Source: a virus (taxonomy: Duplodnaviria; Heunggongvirae; Uroviricota; Caudoviricetes). From it: DNA of 6,836 bases. Made by a program: the position numbers and the translations under genes. Below, in pieces: positions 1 through 6,836 of the stretch (within the stretch, counting starts at the first letter, position 1; every line of letters starts with the position of its first letter). Location: the IMG/VR virus record IMGVR_UViG_2547132127_000012; one strand, 5' to 3'. The notes under the pieces were generated by a model that saw only the letters and a program-made list of their open reading frames with translations, did not search any database and had not been told where the DNA came from.

Positions 1-819
1 ATGTGTCAGGTATTTGGTGTATCCAGGAGCGGTTATTACAACTGGGTACAGCATGAACCCTCAGACAGAAAACAAAGTGATGAGCGGCTAAAACTGGAGA
101 TTAAGGTGGCACATATCCGCACTCGCGAAACATATGGAACCCGGCGGCTCCAGACGGAGCTGGCAGAGAATGGCATCATCGTTGGTCGTGACCGACTGGC
201 ATGTCTTCGTAAGGAGCTGAGGCTACGCTGTAAGCAGAAACGCAAGTTCAGAGCGACTACGAACCCGAACCACAATCTGCCAGTTGCGCCAAATCTGCTG
301 AACCAGACGTTCGCTCCTACAGCACCAAATCAGGTCTGGGTGGCGGACCTGACGTATGTTGCCACACAGGAGGGATGGTTGTACCTCGCTGGCATCAAAG
401 ATGTTTATACGTGTGAAATTGTCGGCTACGCCATGGGAGAGCGCATGACAAAAGAGCTGACAGGTAAAGCCCTGTTTATGGCGCTCAGGAGCCAGCGCCC
501 ACCTGCCGGGCTAATCCACCACTCTGATCGAGGTTCACAGTACTGCGCATACGATTACCGGGTCATACAGGAGCAGTCTGGTCTGAAAACATCAATGTCG
601 CGTAAAGGTAACTGTTACGACAACGCTCCGATGGAAAGCTTCTGGGGAACGCTGAAAAATGAGAGCCTGAGCCACTATCGTTTTAATAACCGGGATGAAG
701 CCATCTCAGTAATACGGGAATACATTGAGATTTTCTACAATCGTCAGCGTCGTCACTCTCGTCTGGGGAATATCTCCCCGGCAGCCTTCAGGGAAAAATA
801 TCATCAGATGGCTGCTTAA
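1..819 (+). CDS. IS3-family transposase OrfB (DDE integrase-like catalytic domain), IS600-like
   Basis: 272-aa ORF identical to the OrfB of copy 2. Carries IS3-family/retroviral-integrase-like motifs ([26 protein letters not shown]). Family is established knowledge; the IS600 name is from memory of its OrfA/OrfB. Confidence 0.85.
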
Positions 820-862
820 AAAAAGAACAAATGGTAGTGTCCGCTATTGCCAGTACACCTCA
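1..862 (+). mobile_element. IS3-family insertion sequence (IS600-like), copy 1, 3' portion only (window starts inside the element, at the orfB ATG)
   Basis: Bases 1..862 are identical to 3844..4705 of the complete copy (offset 3843). Both copies end ...gtacacctca, then flanking sequence diverges. The left end and orfA lie upstream of the window. Confidence 0.85.
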
Positions 863-1789
863 GTGAAAGAAGCACCGATTGGTATCGAGGTCATCCCCGC
901 GCACGTCACTGAATATCTGAACAAGGTACTGACTGAAACCGATCATGCCAACCCTGATCCGAAAATCGTGGATATTGCCTGCGGTCGCTCCTCTGCCCCG
1001 ATGCCGCAGCGTGTAACAGAAGAAGGAAAACAGGATGATGAAGAAAAACCGCAGCCATCTGGCGCAATGGCAGATGAACAGGCAACGGCTGAAACAATGG
1101 AACCGGATGCAACTGAACATCATCAGAACACGCAGCCGCTGGATGCTCAGTCACAGGTAAATTCTGTTGATGAGAAATATCAGGAACTGCGGGAAGAACT
1201 CCATGAAGCCCGGAAAAACATTCCGCCCAAAAATCCTGTCGATGCAGACAAATTACTGGCTGCCTCTCGCGGAGAATTTGTTGAAGGGATTAGCGACCCG
1301 AATGATCCGAAATGGATTCCCGGTCATCATATCTCCTCAAATGAAGTCAAAAAAACGGAAAATGAAGTGCGACAGACTGAAGATAAACAGCACCAGAACA
1401 GCGAACCGGAGGAGGGAACACCCTGCAATCAGACTGGCGAGGATAACTGCCCTGACTGTGGCGCGGTGATGGGAGACGCAACTTATCAGGAAACTTTTGA
1501 CGAAAAAAAACCAGATGAAGCACAGGAAGAAGAGCCGAAGAAAACGGAAAAAGCTGATGATTTGTTACCGGAGAACGCTGGCAGCGATCAGCATAATGAT
1601 AGCAATAATGAAACTGGCGAAGATGAACTCAACTGGAAAAAACAGGTGTTGATTGCGGCGGTTTACGGTTTATGTGCGAATCCTGCGTGCATAGCCTATG
1701 CGCCTGCAATCCCTGACATCGCAATGATGATTGCCAACAAGCTTGAAAATTTTGGAGTGACCAGTGATGAGCGCTTACCCGATTTTTGA
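863..1789 (+). CDS. Highly acidic (D/E-rich) low-complexity protein, 3' fragment; 5' end probably removed by the IS insertion
   Basis: The frame is open from inside the IS across the junction at 862/863. The first ATG after the junction (1001) has no Shine-Dalgarno, and no plausible start exists between 863 and 1001. Long D/E/Q-rich tract, a Cys cluster (C-x8-C-x2-C, ...[15 protein letters not shown]...), hydrophobic C-terminus. Stop at 1787-1789 overlaps the next gene's start. Identity unknown; I have a vague, unverifiable impression of resemblance to the acidic central region of Rac RecE. Confidence 0.45.
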
Positions 1790-2039
1790 TCGTATTGAAG
1801 AAATGGCATGGGCTCGCCACTACCAGCAGATCGTTCGTGAAGAAAAAGAAACGGAACTGGCGGACGACCTGGAAAAAGGTCTGCCTCAGCACCTGTTTGA
1901 ATCGCTCTGCATCGACCATTTGCAACGCCACGGTGCCAATAAACAGGCAATCAGCCACGCATTTGATGATGATGTTGAGTTTCAGGAGCGCATGGCAGAA
2001 CACATCCGGTACATGGCTGAAACCATTGCCCACCACTAG
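1767..2039 (+). CDS. Hypothetical 90-aa acidic protein, translationally coupled to the upstream ORF
   Basis: GGAG at 1754-1757, 9 nt before ATG 1767. Start overlaps the upstream stop (1787-1789) by 23 nt. No motif recognised. Confidence 0.5.
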
Positions 2040-2068: not shown

Positions 2069-3166
2069 ATGGCGCTTTTTCAACGAGCAATAAACACACA
2101 GGCCTATCTAAAAGCAGGAATTATGGGGTTTGCTGGCGACGGCAAAACCTACACAGCAAGCGAACTGGCTATTGGTCTGGTAATGCTTATGCGGCAACGG
2201 GGAATTGAAGCTGGTAACCGCCCGGTAATGTTTCTGGACACAGAAACAGGCTCTGACTGGGTTAAACCCCGCTTTGATGCGGAAAATATCGAATTATTTA
2301 CGGCAAAAACCCGCTCGTTTGTTGATCTGCTTGAAGCCATTAATGAAGCGGAAAGCAGCGGTTCCGTAATGATCATCGACTCCATCAGTCACTTCTGGAC
2401 CGGATTATGCGACGAGTATGCCAGACGCCGAAACCGTAAACGAGGACTGGAATTTTCAGGCTGGGCGTGGCTCAAACAGGAGTGGCGACGCTTTACCGAT
2501 CGATTTGTTAACAGTCAGGCGCACATTATTATGTGCGGGCGTGCAGGATATGAGTATGACTTTTTCGAAGGTGATGATGGCAAACGCCAGTTGGCAAAAA
2601 CCGGTATAAAAATGAAAGCAGAAACAGAAACCGGTTATGAACCCTCCATCCTGATCCAGATGGAGAAGCAAATGAACATAGAAACCGGTCAGGTGTGGCG
2701 CACCGCCAGAATACTAAAAGATCGCTCCACCCGTATTGATGGACAGGTATTTTCAAACCCAACATTTAAAAACTTTCTTCCTCATATCGAGTTTCTTAAC
2801 CTGGGAGGTGAACACCCCGGCATCGATACCTCACGGGATAACAGTGAATTATTTGCCAACGACGGTACACCGACATGGCTAAAAGAAAAGCGTGCAAAAG
2901 AAATCGCACTTGATGAAATTATCGAGTTGCTCAACAAGCACCATGGGGGCACCAGTAACGACGCCAAACGCGCAAAAGCTGATTTGCTGGAAAAAACATT
3001 CACCTCCCGCTCATGGGAAAGAATCAAAGGTATGGACTGGCCGACAATCAAAGCTGGTCGTAATGCACTATGGATTGAACTGGAAGGCGTTGAATATGCA
3101 TTCCCGGATCCACAAACACAAAACGAAACGCAACAAGCAGGATACGATGAGAATATTCCGGTGTAA
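2069..3166 (+). CDS. RecA-fold P-loop NTPase (AAA_24/Sak4-like topology) with a ~250-aa C-terminal extension of unknown function
   Basis: GGAGG at 2054-2058, 10 nt before ATG 2069. Walker A GFAGDGKT (aa 20-27), acidic strand motif FLDTETG (aa ~55-61), Walker B VMIIDS (aa ~101-106). This Walker A / D-T-E / hhhhDS order is typical of RecA-like and AAA_24 phage ATPases, not ABC or classical AAA+. Family assignment is from motifs, unverified. Confidence 0.8.
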   Translation: MALFQRAINTQAYLKAGIMGFAGDGKTYTASELAIGLVMLMRQRGIEAGNRPVMFLDTETGSDWVKPRFDAENIELFTAKTRSFVDLLEAINEAESSGSVMIIDSISHFWTGLCDEYARRRNRKRGLEFSGWAWLKQEWRRFTDRFVNSQAHIIMCGRAGYEYDFFEGDDGKRQLAKTGIKMKAETETGYEPSILIQMEKQMNIETGQVWRTARILKDRSTRIDGQVFSNPTFKNFLPHIEFLNLGGEHPGIDTSRDNSELFANDGTPTWLKEKRAKEIALDEIIELLNKHHGGTSNDAKRAKADLLEKTFTSRSWERIKGMDWPTIKAGRNALWIELEGVEYAFPDPQTQNETQQAGYDENIPV

Positions 3167-3216
3167 AACCAAGTGCATTTTGAACACGGTTTTTGAAAAT
3201 ATTAATGGAGGTGTTC

Positions 3217-3405
3217 ATGTATAAAATTACAGCCACTATTGAAAAGGAAGGTGGTTCTCCTACCAGCTGGACAAGATATTCAAAATCTAAACTAACGAAA
3301 TCAGAATGCGAAAAAATGCTCTCAGGGAAAAAAGAAGCAGGCGTTTCCAGAGAGCAGAAAGTAAAACTGATAAATTTTAATTGCGAGAAACTTCTGTCCT
3401 CGTGA
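3217..3405 (+). CDS. Hypothetical 62-aa lysine-rich small protein (MYKITATIEKEGG...)
   Basis: GGAGG at 3207-3211, 5 nt before ATG 3217. Lies 50 nt after the ATPase stop in an AT-rich segment and ends 36 nt before the IS left end. I suspect, but cannot verify, similarity to small Rac-prophage proteins of the ydaC type. Confidence 0.5.
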   Translation: MYKITATIEKEGGSPTSWTRYSKSKLTKSECEKMLSGKKEAGVSREQKVKLINFNCEKLLSS

Positions 3406-3441
3406 GTTGCATTATATCAAAATTAGAACTTCATAGCTGAT

Positions 3442-3470
3442 TGAGATAGCCTGAGTTTAACGGACACTCC
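3442..3470 (+). repeat. IS left terminal inverted repeat (imperfect)
   Basis: Matches the reverse complement of 4677..4705 at the terminal TGAG and the internal CGGACACT block. Confidence 0.5.
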
Positions 3471-3505
3471 TTCCTGAAATAGAATGGCATCAGAAGGAGC
3501 TAATA

Positions 3506-3808
3506 ATGAGCAGAAAAACCCAACGTTACTCTAAAGAGTTCAAAGCCGAAGCTGTCAGAACGGTTCTTGAAAATCAACTTTCGATCAGTGAAGGCGCTTC
3601 CCGATTATCTCTTCCTGAAGGCACTTTAGGACAATGGGTTACCGCCGCCAGAAAAGGGCTCGGTACTCCTGGTTCCCGCACGGTGGCTGAACTGGAATCT
3701 GAAATTCTGCAACTGCGTAAGGCGTTAAATGAAGCTCGCCTTGAGCGCGATATATTAAAAAAAGCAACAGCGTATTTTGCACAGGAGTCGCTGAAAAATA
3801 CGCGTTAA
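3506..3808 (+). CDS. IS3-family transposase OrfA (helix-turn-helix DNA-binding protein with C-terminal leucine-zipper-like region)
   Basis: AGGAG at 3494-3498, 7 nt before ATG 3506. 100-aa protein; the slippery heptamer lies near its 3' end. Confidence 0.9.
   Translation: MSRKTQRYSKEFKAEAVRTVLENQLSISEGASRLSLPEGTLGQWVTAARKGLGTPGSRTVAELESEILQLRKALNEARLERDILKKATAYFAQESLKNTR
3757..3763 (+). other. Programmed -1 ribosomal frameshift slippery heptamer (A AAA AAA) producing the OrfAB fusion transposase
   Basis: AAAAAAA then G at 3757-3764. In the orfA frame it reads ttA AAA AAA Gca. A -1 slip moves codon starts from 2 mod 3 (orfA) to 1 mod 3, the orfB frame (ATG 3844). This is the standard IS3-family arrangement. 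Confidence 0.6.
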
Positions 3809-3843
3809 TCGAACAATGGCGACAACAATTTCCCATTGAAGCG

Positions 3844-4662
3844 ATGTGTCAGGTATTTGGTGTATCCAGGAGCGGTTATTACAACTGGGTACAGCATGAA
3901 CCCTCAGACAGAAAACAAAGTGATGAGCGGCTAAAACTGGAGATTAAGGTGGCACATATCCGCACTCGCGAAACATATGGAACCCGGCGGCTCCAGACGG
4001 AGCTGGCAGAGAATGGCATCATCGTTGGTCGTGACCGACTGGCATGTCTTCGTAAGGAGCTGAGGCTACGCTGTAAGCAGAAACGCAAGTTCAGAGCGAC
4101 TACGAACCCGAACCACAATCTGCCAGTTGCGCCAAATCTGCTGAACCAGACGTTCGCTCCTACAGCACCAAATCAGGTCTGGGTGGCGGACCTGACGTAT
4201 GTTGCCACACAGGAGGGATGGTTGTACCTCGCTGGCATCAAAGATGTTTATACGTGTGAAATTGTCGGCTACGCCATGGGAGAGCGCATGACAAAAGAGC
4301 TGACAGGTAAAGCCCTGTTTATGGCGCTCAGGAGCCAGCGCCCACCTGCCGGGCTAATCCACCACTCTGATCGAGGTTCACAGTACTGCGCATACGATTA
4401 CCGGGTCATACAGGAGCAGTCTGGTCTGAAAACATCAATGTCGCGTAAAGGTAACTGTTACGACAACGCTCCGATGGAAAGCTTCTGGGGAACGCTGAAA
4501 AATGAGAGCCTGAGCCACTATCGTTTTAATAACCGGGATGAAGCCATCTCAGTAATACGGGAATACATTGAGATTTTCTACAATCGTCAGCGTCGTCACT
4601 CTCGTCTGGGGAATATCTCCCCGGCAGCCTTCAGGGAAAAATATCATCAGATGGCTGCTTAA
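3844..4662 (+). CDS. IS3-family transposase OrfB (DDE catalytic domain); in vivo made mainly as OrfAB by -1 frameshift
   Basis: 272-aa ORF identical to 1..819; lies in the -1 frame relative to orfA. Confidence 0.9.
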   Translation: MCQVFGVSRSGYYNWVQHEPSDRKQSDERLKLEIKVAHIRTRETYGTRRLQTELAENGIIVGRDRLACLRKELRLRCKQKRKFRATTNPNHNLPVAPNLLNQTFAPTAPNQVWVADLTYVATQEGWLYLAGIKDVYTCEIVGYAMGERMTKELTGKALFMALRSQRPPAGLIHHSDRGSQYCAYDYRVIQEQSGLKTSMSRKGNCYDNAPMESFWGTLKNESLSHYRFNNRDEAISVIREYIEIFYNRQRRHSRLGNISPAAFREKYHQMAA

Positions 4663-4676
4663 AAAAAGAACAAATG

Positions 4677-4705
4677 GTAGTGTCCGCTATTGCCAGTACA
4701 CCTCA
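4677..4705 (+). repeat. IS right terminal inverted repeat (imperfect)
   Basis: Reverse complement aligns with 3442..3470. The same sequence ends copy 1 at 834..862. Confidence 0.5.
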
Positions 4706-4727
4706 GATTATTAAAAATCAACCACAC

Positions 4728-4778: not shown

Positions 4779-5060
4779 ATGAATCTTGTGACACTCAAAA
4801 CGTGGGGAAAACTCAGATATCCGGATAACCCACCATCAATATCAACGCTGAGACGATGGGCAAGGAATGGAAACATTTATCCTGCACCTGCACTACACGG
4901 GAGGAGTTACAGGGTGGTTCCGGAGGCTTTCTATATCAACCCAAATAAGGTTGATACCGATATAACACACCATCAGCCTAATGGGCGACAAGGGAGAGAC
5001 AGTCCGTTAATGGAGAAGTTAAAACATGCAGCGGAAAAAATACGATCCCAATTTGCCTAG
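4779..5060 (+). CDS. xis: Excisionase (lambda Xis-like, winged-helix recombination directionality factor)
   Basis: GAGAGG at 4765-4770, 8 nt before ATG 4779. Product MNLVTLKTWGKLRYPDNPPSISTLRRWARNGNIYPAPALHGRSYRV... resembles lambda Xis (MYLTLQEWNARQRRPRSLETVRRWVRECRIFPPP...). Overlaps int by 35 nt, as in lambda xis-int. The track's longer ORF start (4674) lies inside the IS and is rejected. Confidence 0.7.
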   Translation: MNLVTLKTWGKLRYPDNPPSISTLRRWARNGNIYPAPALHGRSYRVVPEAFYINPNKVDTDITHHQPNGRQGRDSPLMEKLKHAAEKIRSQFA

Positions 5061-6102
5061 AAACTTAACATATCGAAGGAGAGACAAAGCATATTACTGG
5101 CGCAACCCTCTGACGAAAGAAGAATTTACACTAGGTAAAATTTCAAGAAGAGATGCAGTAGCGCAGGCAATTGAAGCAAATCATTATATATACAAAAACT
5201 ACTCTCCTGCTGCCCTAATTGAAAAGCTTAAAGGGGTCGACTCATTTACTATGGCAGGCTGGATTGAACGTTACAAAACGATTCTTATAAGGAGAAAAGC
5301 GTCCAGAAATACTTATAAAACTCGGGTAAATCAACTGGAGACAATAAAAGAAAAATTAGGAGGGGTTTTACTGACAGAAATAACCACTCGCCATATCGCC
5401 GAGTTTCTTGATTTGTGGATTGAAGGAGGGAAAAACACGATGGCAGGATCAATGCGTTCTGTGTTATCTGATATGTTCCGCGAAGCCATTGTTGAAGGAC
5501 GTATATCTCAAAATCCAGTAACGCCAACAAGAGCACCGAAAATAGTAGTTACAAGAGAACGGCTGAAACTAAAGACATACAACTGCATCAGGGAGGCAGC
5601 AGATCAACTTCCGGCATGGTTCCCATTAGCTATGGACTTAGCCCTTGTAACAGGACAACGTCGCGAAGACATAACGAATATGCGGTTCAGTGATATTTAT
5701 GATGATCGTCTCCACATCAGGCAAATTAAGACAGGAATGATGATTGCTATCCCCCTGTCACTCAGCCTTCCTGTCGCTGGTTTACGACTTGGTGCAGTAG
5801 TTGAACAGTGCCGCATGGTAAGTAGGGGGGATTATCTAATCAGTGCCGGGATTAGAAAAAACAGCCCTGACGGCAGCATTCACCCGGACGGCCTGACAAA
5901 GAAATTTGTCGCAGCCAGAAAATTAACAGGTATCCTGTTCAGTGAAAACCCACCAACTTTTCACGAAATCAGAAGCCTGGCTGGACGATTGTACAAAGAA
6001 ATATGTGGAGAAGAATTTGCTCAGCGTCTACTTGGCCACACATCGGAGAAGACAACAAAAATGTATCTTGATGAGAGAGAAAAAACGTACTTACTGCTCT
6101 GA
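5026..6102 (+). CDS. int: Lambda-family tyrosine integrase (site-specific recombinase)
   Basis: GGAG at 5012-5015, 10 nt before ATG. N-terminal arm-binding region ([30 protein letters not shown]) parallels lambda Int. Catalytic motifs present: [10 protein letters not shown] (Arg), [11 protein letters not shown] (His-x-x-Arg), [13 protein letters not shown] (His...Tyr nucleophile). Confidence 0.9.
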
Positions 6103-6118
6103 TTTTAACGTAAATGGA

Positions 6119-6148
6119 TTGTTAAATGTATTTTGGTTGTGATATAAC
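6119..6148 (+). promoter_or_regulatory. Candidate sigma-70 promoter with extended -10, firing toward the sRNA locus
   Basis: -35 TTGTTA (6119-6124), 18-nt spacer, TGa + TATAAC (6140-6148). Predicted start near 6155-6157. Hexamer prediction only. Confidence 0.3.
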
Positions 6149-6180
6149 CAAAAAAGACCGGAATACAGAAATTCGAGTAA

Positions 6181-6200
6181 ATTTCGGGGAATTTCGGGGA
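6181..6200. repeat. Perfect tandem direct repeat, 2 x 10 bp (atttcgggga atttcgggga), with a degenerate third unit just upstream (6171-6180)
   Basis: Read directly. It sits between the int stop and the sdsR 3' end, where lambda-type P' arm Int-binding sites would be expected. Confidence 0.6.
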
Positions 6201-6233
6201 GACGTTTGCAACTAATTGATTTTAAATACAATT

Positions 6234-6267
6234 AAAAAAAGACCGAATACGATTCCTGTATTCGGTC
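6234..6267 (-). terminator. Intrinsic terminator of SdsR (10-bp perfect stem, 7-nt loop, then U7 on the minus strand)
   Basis: gaccgaatac (6241-6250) pairs with gtattcggtc (6258-6267); loop gattcct. A7 at 6234-6240 on the plus strand is U7 on the minus strand directly after the hairpin. Confidence 0.8.
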
Positions 6268-6336
6268 CAGGGAAATGGCTCTTGGGAGAGAGCCGTGCGC
6301 TAAAAGTTGGCATTAATGCAGGCTTAGTTGCCTTGC
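6235..6336 (-). ncRNA. sdsR: SdsR (RyeB) small regulatory RNA, RpoS-dependent, ~102 nt
   Basis: Minus strand reads GCAAGGCAACTAAGCCTGCATTAATGCCAACTTTTAGCGCACGGCTCTCTCCCAAGAGCCATTTCCCTGGACCGAATACAGGAATCGTATTCGGTC then a T-run, which matches my recollection of enterobacterial SdsR. Internal hairpin ggctct...agagcc, terminal terminator, sigma-S-type -10 just upstream. Confidence 0.8.
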
Positions 6337-6339
6337 CCT

Positions 6340-6375
6340 TTAAGAATAGATGACGACGCCAGGTTTTCCAGTTTG
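6340..6375 (-). promoter_or_regulatory. Sigma-S-type promoter of sdsR
   Basis: On the minus strand, -14 to -4 relative to the proposed start (6336) reads TCTATTCTTAA, close to the sigma-S extended -10 consensus TCTATACTTAA including the -13 C. No clear -35, as is usual for sigma-S promoters. Confidence 0.5.
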
Positions 6376-6423
6376 CGTGCAAAATGGTCAATAAAAAGCG
6401 CGGTGGTCATCAGCTTAAATGTT

Positions 6424-6465
6424 AAAAACCGCCCGTTCTGGTGAAAGAACTGAGGCGGTTTTTTT
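6424..6465. terminator. Bidirectional intrinsic terminator between yebY (minus) and the sRNA locus
   Basis: Stem ccgcc (6429-6433) / ggcgg (6454-6458) with extension gttc/gaac, flanked by A5 (6424-6428) and T7 (6459-6465), so hairpin plus U-run is present on both strands. It lies 30 nt beyond the yebY stop. Confidence 0.75.
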
Positions 6466-6494
6466 ATTGGAAATCAAAAGGCTATTTTAGGTAA

Positions 6495-6836
6495 TTAACA
6501 GAGTTTTTCAGCTCGTTCTATAAACGGTGCCAGACTCATTTTTTCGCCGGGATTGTTAGGATCATCAATCTGAATCACCGAAATGGGTTGGGCATTGGTC
6601 TTCCCACTGGCAACTTCCTTTTGTGCGATATCGTTTAAAGGATACTGCACGAGGGTACTTGGGTTGATGACATACAAAGCATTACCCGGTCGGCAAGTCA
6701 GCATTACCTCTTCGCGATTAAACGCCCATTTGTCTTTACCCACTTCAAAACGACTCACGGTTATCACCTGTGGAGCCGCCAGCGCCGCTGCAGAACTGGT
6801 GAGTAACAGAAACGCCAGAATACTTTTTTTCATCAT
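6495..6836 (-). CDS. yebY: Small exported protein with Sec signal peptide ([20 protein letters not shown]|APQ), probably host protein YebY (DUF2511)
   Basis: 113-aa ORF with a typical n/h/c signal peptide and AxA cleavage motif. Its position next to sdsR/ryeA matches my recollection of the E. coli pphA-ryeA/sdsR-yebY neighbourhood. The ATG is at the window edge (6834-6836), so upstream signals are not visible. Confidence 0.8.

Follow-up and report, generated by a model that had tools for sequence, protein, structure and literature searches.

The window analysed here is the whole 6,836-bp stretch of the IMG/VR virus record IMGVR_UViG_2547132127_000012, and it is matched with 100% identity by Shigella flexneri 5 str. 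8401 (CP000266.1, approximately 1,881,364-1,888,199). It carries a phage integrase gene (int, 5026-6102, plus strand) and the gene of the small RNA (sRNA) SdsR, also named RyeB (6333-6234, minus strand), which are convergent and separated by 131 bp. The preliminary description had int heading for the 3' end of SdsR, and both the open reading frame (ORF) of int and the Rfam match of SdsR agree with it. On the plus strand, the curated part of the RyeA/SraC model of Rfam matches 6230-6374 (179 bits), representing the antisense gene ryeA. The features around the junction between phage and host DNA, named according to the reading argued for below, are the following:

5026-6102, plus strand: int, full-length lambda-type tyrosine integrase of 358 aa (Pfam Arm-DNA-bind_1, Phage_int_M and Phage_integrase)
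6103-6232, unstranded: phage arm of the right attachment site (attR), equivalent to lambda P', with no similarity to the empty site and 97-100% identical to the phage attachment site (attP) of PP818812
6233-6259, unstranded: 27-bp common core of the chromosomal (attB), phage (attP), left (attL) and right (attR) attachment (att) sites, TAAAAA[A/G]AGACCGAA[T/C]ACGATTCCTGT, from the four-way comparison
6234-6333, minus strand: sdsR (ryeB), complete (Rfam 118 bits, gathering score 38, model positions 1-100 of 100)
6240-6268, minus strand: hybrid Rho-independent terminator of SdsR, the 5' arm being host DNA and the 3' arm and U7 tail phage DNA, 11 pairs followed by a T7 run
6249-6259, unstranded: strand-exchange interval, delimited by two single-nucleotide polymorphisms (SNPs) and the divergence of the arms, containing the 7-nt terminator loop (6251-6257)
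6260-6462, plus strand: host-derived body of ryeA (sraC), approximately RyeA +68 to +270, identical to K-12 save for 2 SNPs
6424-6465, unstranded: RyeA 3' terminator hairpin (centroid -20 kcal/mol), followed by a U7 run
6495-6836, minus strand: yebY, chromosomal gene (ORF; RefSeq annotation under the match in all Escherichia coli genomes)

The attachment site in the SdsR terminator

Base-level alignment of the window with a K-12-like empty site showed near-identity to the right of the junction and a loss of similarity at approximately 6228-6233. The segment 6233-6836 was matched by 5,426/5,426 complete E. coli genomes, 228 of which matched the int side too, and in 5,191 of the 5,426 pphA is joined directly to sdsR without any counterpart of 6103-6232. 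An alignment of 6103-6836 with a prophage-free site had been proposed in the preliminary description, and what it reveals is a break of identity rather than full colinearity.

Four att sites were compared, namely attB from the K-12-like empty site (...ggcttttaacagataaaaagAGACCGAACACGATTCCTGtattcggtccaggg...), attP from the phage record PP818812 (...ttttaaatacaattaaaaaaAGACCGAATACGATTCCTGttttcgtcaacaaac...), attL from three E. coli lysogens and attR from the window and E. coli lysogens. PP818812 is a free phage genome, the int and attP of which are 97% identical to the element of the window. In OkiPb01676, FDAARGOS_943 and TUM1881 (all E. coli), attL consists of the left flank of attB and the right flank of attP, with the junction sequence ACGATTCCTGTTTTCGTCAAC, and attR in the window and in the E. 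coli lysogens consists of the left flank of attP and the right flank of attB. The 27-bp core shared by all four sites spans the last ~26 nt of SdsR, and it is also present downstream of int in the Salmonella prophage ZC-S1_prp (19/19) and in the Flyfo siphovirus Tbat2_3 (17/19). Two positions of the core (6239 and 6248) distinguish the phage from the K-12 attB; both complete attL/attR pairs have the host G and C there at attL and the phage A and T at attR, a pattern that also holds for the third attL and for the attR of the window. The arms diverge from 6260 on, and strand exchange is therefore placed inside 6249-6259. We infer from this layout that the stem arms of the SdsR terminator could act as core-type integrase (Int) sites and its loop as the overlap region, with the putative cut sites lying within the same interval.

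The partition of the two diagnostic SNPs between attL and attR bears out the replacement 3' end that the preliminary description had attributed to the phage, since the final ~15 nt of sdsR (6234-6248, comprising the 3' stem arm and the U-tail) are phage DNA. The intact terminator that it had noted at the junction was also found, with an 11-bp stem, a folding energy of -15.8 kcal/mol, equal to the K-12 value, and a U7 tail; the K-12 terminator contains a G-U pair, and its tail (UCUUUUU) is interrupted. Over its full length, SdsR folds into three hairpins and the terminator (z=-4.4), and its promoter region is the same as in K-12. The attP hairpin alone reaches -4.8 kcal/mol, and neither the attP nor the attL hairpin folds better than shuffled sequences. 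The phage therefore carries just the 3' half needed to regenerate SdsR. For the same lack of stability, these two hairpins were rejected as candidate terminators for phage late genes or for pphA.

As a mechanism, attP brings along a 27-bp segment matching the final ~26 nt of sdsR, and recombination in or beside the 7-nt terminator loop restores a complete SdsR bearing the phage 3' stem arm and U-tail. We consider it very probable that the sdsR terminator is the chromosomal att site of a temperate phage lineage with a lambda-type integrase and, with equal confidence, that a lambda-like prophage, since decayed, integrated into it and left its right-hand junction (attR) in the window.

Two other explanations of the junction were weighed. 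That 6103-6836 is ordinary chromosome and the real prophage junction lies elsewhere has practically no standing, given the 5,191 E. coli genomes in which pphA and sdsR are joined without an equivalent of 6103-6232. The other explanation is that int came to lie beside sdsR merely through a rearrangement mediated by the insertion sequence (IS) IS600 in Shigella, with no site-specific integration, and it draws on the fact that the left edge of the remnant is an IS600 recombination joint and that attL is missing locally. However, the 228 E. coli genomes have the same int-sdsR junction away from any IS and paired with matching attL sites, and the junction sequence equals the attP of the free phage as far as the core, which makes a pure rearrangement exceedingly improbable; the comparison of attL and attR already refutes it. 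Two observations do weigh against site-specific integration into the SdsR terminator as described above. In one E. coli attR (L014), position 6248 is occupied by the host-type C, which may be an assembly error, as the assembly has other single-base indels nearby, or an attP variant. Moreover, the 10 kb on either side of the S. flexneri element contain neither attL nor pphA, so that site-specific integration there is deduced from the identical E. coli junctions. The other prophage end with the same core, for which the preliminary description had suggested a search, is thus present next to pphA in three E. coli lysogens, and in S. flexneri an IS600 joint is found within 10 kb in its place.

Three further observations concern the records used. 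The record PP818812.1 is labelled "Actinobacillus phage vB_Apl-pPE4" (Actinobacillus pleuropneumoniae), yet it has the enterobacterial sdsR core and an int/attP 97% identical to those of the window, and its host label looks doubtful. The search of genome contigs with Int returned only two near-identical loci, both apparently from error-prone assemblies, and gave no cross-genus picture. These two loci (L013 and L014, both at locus positions 4215-4330) show scattered single-base indels in sdsR, such as GACCAACATGATTCC, which are probably uncorrected long-read errors; assemblies with such indels could yield false sRNA variants.

With regard to occupancy, the pphA-sdsR interval is broken in ~235 of the 5,426 complete E. 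coli genomes, and 228 of these carry this int (~4% occupancy). Two other interruptions among the listed matches involve IS elements, one ISApl1 and one annotated IS1. The former, in E. coli NZ_CP051158.1 (locus L020, 6310-7284), lies at the 3' end of SdsR between pphA and sdsR, and parts pphA and the ryeA promoter from sdsR with no phage involved. The preliminary description had cited the locus as a reported insertion hot spot; literature to this effect exists, with the concept described in Salmonella by Balbontin et al. (2008), but at ~4% occupancy by essentially one integrase lineage, the genome comparison points in E. coli to an att site dedicated to that lineage and not to a promiscuous hot spot.

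RyeA and pphA at the occupied site

In K-12, RyeA is a ~270-nt sigma-70 transcript, the +10 of which lies at SdsR +132 in a promoter construct, placing RyeA +1 at approximately SdsR +141, and the 3' end of which lies at +261 to +270 (Choi et al., 2019, PMC6610125). The same study reports that transcription of ryeA interferes with that of sdsR and that K-12 pphA is expressed mainly through read-through from the sdsR promoter. Projected on the window, RyeA +1 corresponds to approximately 6193, and host DNA starts at 6233 (RyeA +41) and is unambiguous from 6260 (RyeA +68). Host DNA thus begins ~40 nt past RyeA +1, so the native ryeA promoter and the first 40-67 nt are not at this junction; in the E. 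coli lysogens, the promoter and 5' end of ryeA sit at attL and are aimed into phage tail genes. The preliminary description had supposed that the DNA upstream of the RyeA body might be prophage-derived, and this holds for 6103-6232 in view of its match to the attP of PP818812 and its lack of similarity to the empty site. At the other end of ryeA, the terminator hairpin at 6424-6465 probably serves yebY on the opposite strand as well.

Integration accordingly moves the ryeA sigma-70 promoter and the first 40-67 nt to attL, leaving the body of the gene behind the P' arm and int, and pphA is disconnected from the sdsR promoter. The expected outcome would be less RyeA, more SdsR and less pphA, because in the K-12 data ryeA interferes with sdsR and pphA is expressed mainly by read-through from sdsR; the changes reviewed for Salmonella phage PhiW104, a fall of ryeA and a rise of ryeB, are in line with it. 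The rewiring of the RyeA/SdsR pair that had been suggested is, given the published work in K-12 and Salmonella, plausible.

Some RyeA-sense RNA might nevertheless be made in lysogens, and two sources for it have to be weighed against a simple loss. It could be read-through from int, or driven by IS600, into the ryeA body and stopping at the RyeA terminator. A simple scan detected no plus-strand terminator from the int stop codon to 6424, and the plus strand of 6103-6232 has no significant structure (z=-1.5); on the other hand, the same simple scan missed the RyeA terminator too, and int expression is usually low in a repressed or decayed prophage, which leaves read-through a tentative proposal, somewhat better placed than the following one. 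A sigma-70 promoter in the phage arm (TTTGCA-16 nt-TACAAT, 6205-6232) could drive a 5'-truncated RyeA from approximately 6239, fully complementary to SdsR. It is a 9/12 promoter-like match at exactly the fitting place, and in Salmonella lysogens ryeA is modified and less transcribed, not abolished, according to a review (PMC7380047). Nevertheless, two such sites were found by the scan where 1.1 are expected by chance, the hexamers are not kept in the lineages with 73% and 51% Int identity, E. coli FDAARGOS_943 has TGCAAT and has lost the key A at position 2, and an overlap with the AT-rich consensus of integration host factor (IHF) explains the match. As a replacement RyeA promoter, the arm was therefore rejected for its chance-level, non-conserved match overlapping the IHF consensus, and we retain it as an unlikely rival.

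A more speculative consequence, to which we give little credence, is that the int mRNA gains in the integrated state a ~230-nt 3' extension perfectly complementary to SdsR, and that SdsR, induced by sigma-S, would together with RNase III destroy int mRNA in lysogens only. Were it so, the SdsR-int pairing would mirror the sib retroregulation of lambda, which acts only on the non-integrated phage; prophage stability would be coupled to a stationary-phase sRNA of the host, and int transcription would titrate SdsR.

The integrase, the phage arm and the prophage remnant

Int comprises the three domains of its type, namely arm-binding (PF09003, 28 bits with a cutoff of 22), core-binding (PF22022) and catalytic (PF00589). 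Its residues 8-353 align to the lambda Int structures 5j0n/1z1b (E=1.9e-71), and the motifs VTGQRR, IKTG, FHEIRS, LLGHTS and KMYLD align with lambda R212, K235, H308/R311, H333 and Y342, all of which are conserved. The phage arm was aligned across three Int lineages, represented by the window, the Salmonella ZC-S1_prp (73% Int identity) and the Flyfo siphovirus Tbat2_3 (51%), and what stays invariant in all three is the core, a core-like element (AGACCG-AATA) and a set of three tandem repeats. The excisionase gene and the arm elements are located as follows:

4779-5060, plus strand: xis, excisionase of 93 aa overlapping the start of int (Pfam Exc 53.4 bits; 93-aa gene in relatives)
6155-6167, plus strand: core-like element AGACCGGAATACA in the arm, AGACCG..A....A invariant at 100%, 73% and 51% Int identity
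6169-6199, plus strand: three tandem repeats AAATTCGAG / AATTTCGGG / AATTTCGGGG, with ~10-11 bp spacing and the consensus WTTCGRG, invariant blocks
6209-6221, minus strand: IHF consensus AATCAATTAGTTG (WATCAANNNNTTR), between the repeats and the core and placed like lambda H'

WTTCGRG has six matches in 4.2 kb of phage DNA, and five of them are packed into the 233 bp surrounding attP, in both arms and all on a single strand, which suggests that the repeats at 6169-6199 are candidate arm-type Int sites. The IHF consensus is the sole match in the 4.2 kb of PP818812 DNA (0.24 expected), and an IHF-like AATCAATGGGTTA stands at the same place in the Salmonella relative; judged by its sequence and position, 6209-6221 may thus have the role of an IHF site. 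The window, E. coli and the free phage each have two copies of the 10-bp unit AATTTCGGGG (6180-6199), against one in several S. flexneri strains (L005, L006 and L011); a candidate arm-type Int site thus varies in copy number within a stranded attR. At 6149-6176, ~85 bp to the left of the real core, the att core and hairpin recur in degenerate form (AAAAAAGACCGGAATACAGAAATTCGAG), including the AGACCG-AATA stretch that is invariant down to 51% Int identity; this second hairpin is not stable. It was rejected as a backup terminator for SdsR read-through, as its minus-strand fold has -6 kcal/mol (z=-1.1).

The remainder of the window is occupied by early phage genes and two IS600 copies:

1-862, plus strand: IS600, right-hand portion, truncated at the edge of the window and forming the left boundary of the remnant (99.4-100% identical to the second copy; RefSeq annotation of relatives)
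860-1789, plus strand: recE (exodeoxyribonuclease VIII), internal part only (match to 338-596 of the 877 positions of NCBIfam PRK09709, under the full-length cutoff)
1764-2039, plus strand: gam, host-nuclease inhibitor (Pfam Gam, 175 bits)
2069-3166, plus strand: AAA_24 ATPase gene of the prophage early region (Pfam AAA_24, 56.5 bits; gene order as in an intact E. coli prophage)
3193-3405, plus strand: DUF1187 ORF (Pfam DUF1187, 124.8 bits)
3401-3223, minus strand: RalA antitoxin sRNA, opposite the DUF1187 ORF (Rfam RalA, 216 bits)
3442-4705, plus strand: complete IS600 of 1264 bp between the DUF1187 ORF and xis, with the target duplication GAT at 3439-3441 and 4706-4708

An identity of the IS copies as IS629 was ruled out by the RefSeq annotation of near-identical copies as IS600. 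The element had been described as a lambdoid prophage, and the lambda-type int and the early genes support this; it is not intact here, as the window with 10 kb on either side contains no phage genes other than the recE fragment, gam, AAA_24, DUF1187/RalA, xis and int, in addition to the two IS600 copies, and amounts to a ~6-kb remnant broken by them. The prophage of S. flexneri 8401 has thus decayed to the order recE'-gam-AAA_24-RalA/DUF1187-IS600-xis-int, cut on its left by an IS600 recombination joint. In the full copy of the left IS600 (S. flexneri locus L007, 4574-5838), the 3-bp target duplication is absent (GGA vs GTG) and unrelated chromosomal genes are adjacent, hence its assignment as a recombination joint. 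On its far side from the recE fragment lies a truncated LysR-family gene, and beyond that the genes of an oligopeptide-binding protein and of an MscS-like channel. None of these left-flank S. flexneri genes gave an NCBIfam match above the equivalog cutoffs. By K-12 gene order we take them to be pgrR'-mppA-ynaI, ~0.5 Mb from sdsR, and if so they would imply a large inversion or deletion mediated by IS600. The gap from the AAA_24 stop (3166) to the DUF1187 ORF (3193) is too short to hold the ralR toxin gene, which in E. coli OkiPb01676 is annotated at this position, and RalA may here be an orphan antitoxin sRNA.

The intact E. coli prophages are 42-48 kb long, extend from pphA to yebY and have a near-identical early region, with Rac/lambda-like early genes and myovirus-type baseplate genes. 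In E. coli FDAARGOS_943 (NZ_CP065615.1), ipaH3 (21721-23436 of the locus L018), a type III secretion system effector gene, is the last gene of the intact prophage before attL (~24019-24037 of the same locus) and pphA. This genome is rich in IS600/IS1 and looks like enteroinvasive E. coli (EIEC) or Shigella. An ipaH-carrying phage may thus have been the ancestor of the S. flexneri remnant.

Relation to known systems and significance

The closest parallel is PhiW104 of Salmonella enterica DT104, which uses the last 23 bp of ryeB, with a fall of ryeA transcription and a rise of ryeB (Balbontin et al., 2008, as summarized in PMC7380047). Within that account, its att site of ~23 bp is the terminator of ryeB, the same bases being covered by the core of the window (6233-6259), and is internal to ryeA, so that lysogeny replaces the 5' portion of RyeA in both cases. 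The Salmonella prophage with the 73%-identical Int also has the same core as the window. PhiW104, likened here by att site and effect on ryeA, differs in that the host of the window is Shigella/E. coli, the core deviates from the K-12 attB at two positions and the element is an IS600-truncated remnant. Bobay et al. (2013) listed ryeB in Salmonella as a known phage target, and Frohlich et al. (2012) drew the S. flexneri sdsR locus with a variable 3' neighbor.

The recombination system of the element is a diverged member of the lambda/HK022 Int-Xis family. Its 358-aa Int aligns end to end with lambda Int and has the arm-binding N-domain and the catalytic residues, its xis overlaps the int start, and int adjoins an arm in which three tandem repeats and an IHF consensus (predicted sites in the window) precede the core. 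In contrast, Int identity is only ~39-41%, attB is an sRNA terminator hairpin instead of the gal-bio site and the arm repeat sequence differs. Phages of tRNA and transfer-messenger RNA (tmRNA) 3' ends resemble it in that int is transcribed toward the 3' end of an RNA gene, attP carries only the 3' part of that gene, the RNA is regenerated at attR and crossover takes place in a stem-loop with dyad symmetry; the tRNA-type geometry proposed for int and the replacement 3' end is thus confirmed by the phage-type SdsR 3' arm and tail at attR. Unlike them, the target here is the Hfq-type regulatory sRNA SdsR with an overlapping antisense gene, so that integration, though neutral for SdsR, is not so for RyeA and for pphA further downstream. 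With the Rac prophage of E. coli K-12 the element has in common the lambdoid layout and the early genes recE, ydaE, kil and RalA/DUF1187, although ralR is apparently absent in the window. Rac integrates at ttcA with a different integrase.

Use of an att site at sdsR has been known in Salmonella since 2008, and the window is a clear but ordinary example of it; the principle having been published (Balbontin et al., 2008), current understanding is unchanged. For the att site of this E. coli/Shigella integrase lineage, no description was found in the searchable literature. The present analysis adds the precise core and interval of crossover, the proof from SNPs that the phage supplies the 3' end of SdsR, the resemblance of the arm to that of lambda, the separation of pphA from the sdsR promoter and the truncation of the Shigella copy by IS600. 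The window provides a base-resolution case, in Shigella and E. coli, of a phage using the terminator of a regulatory sRNA as att site, in which insertion keeps SdsR, decapitates the antisense, antitoxin-like RyeA and uncouples the phosphatase gene pphA. The presence of ipaH3 at the attL end of intact relatives links this att site to virulence gene acquisition in Shigella/EIEC. As ~4% of the complete E. coli genomes and S. flexneri carry the junction, the regulation of SdsR, RyeA and pphA established in K-12 may not transfer to them.

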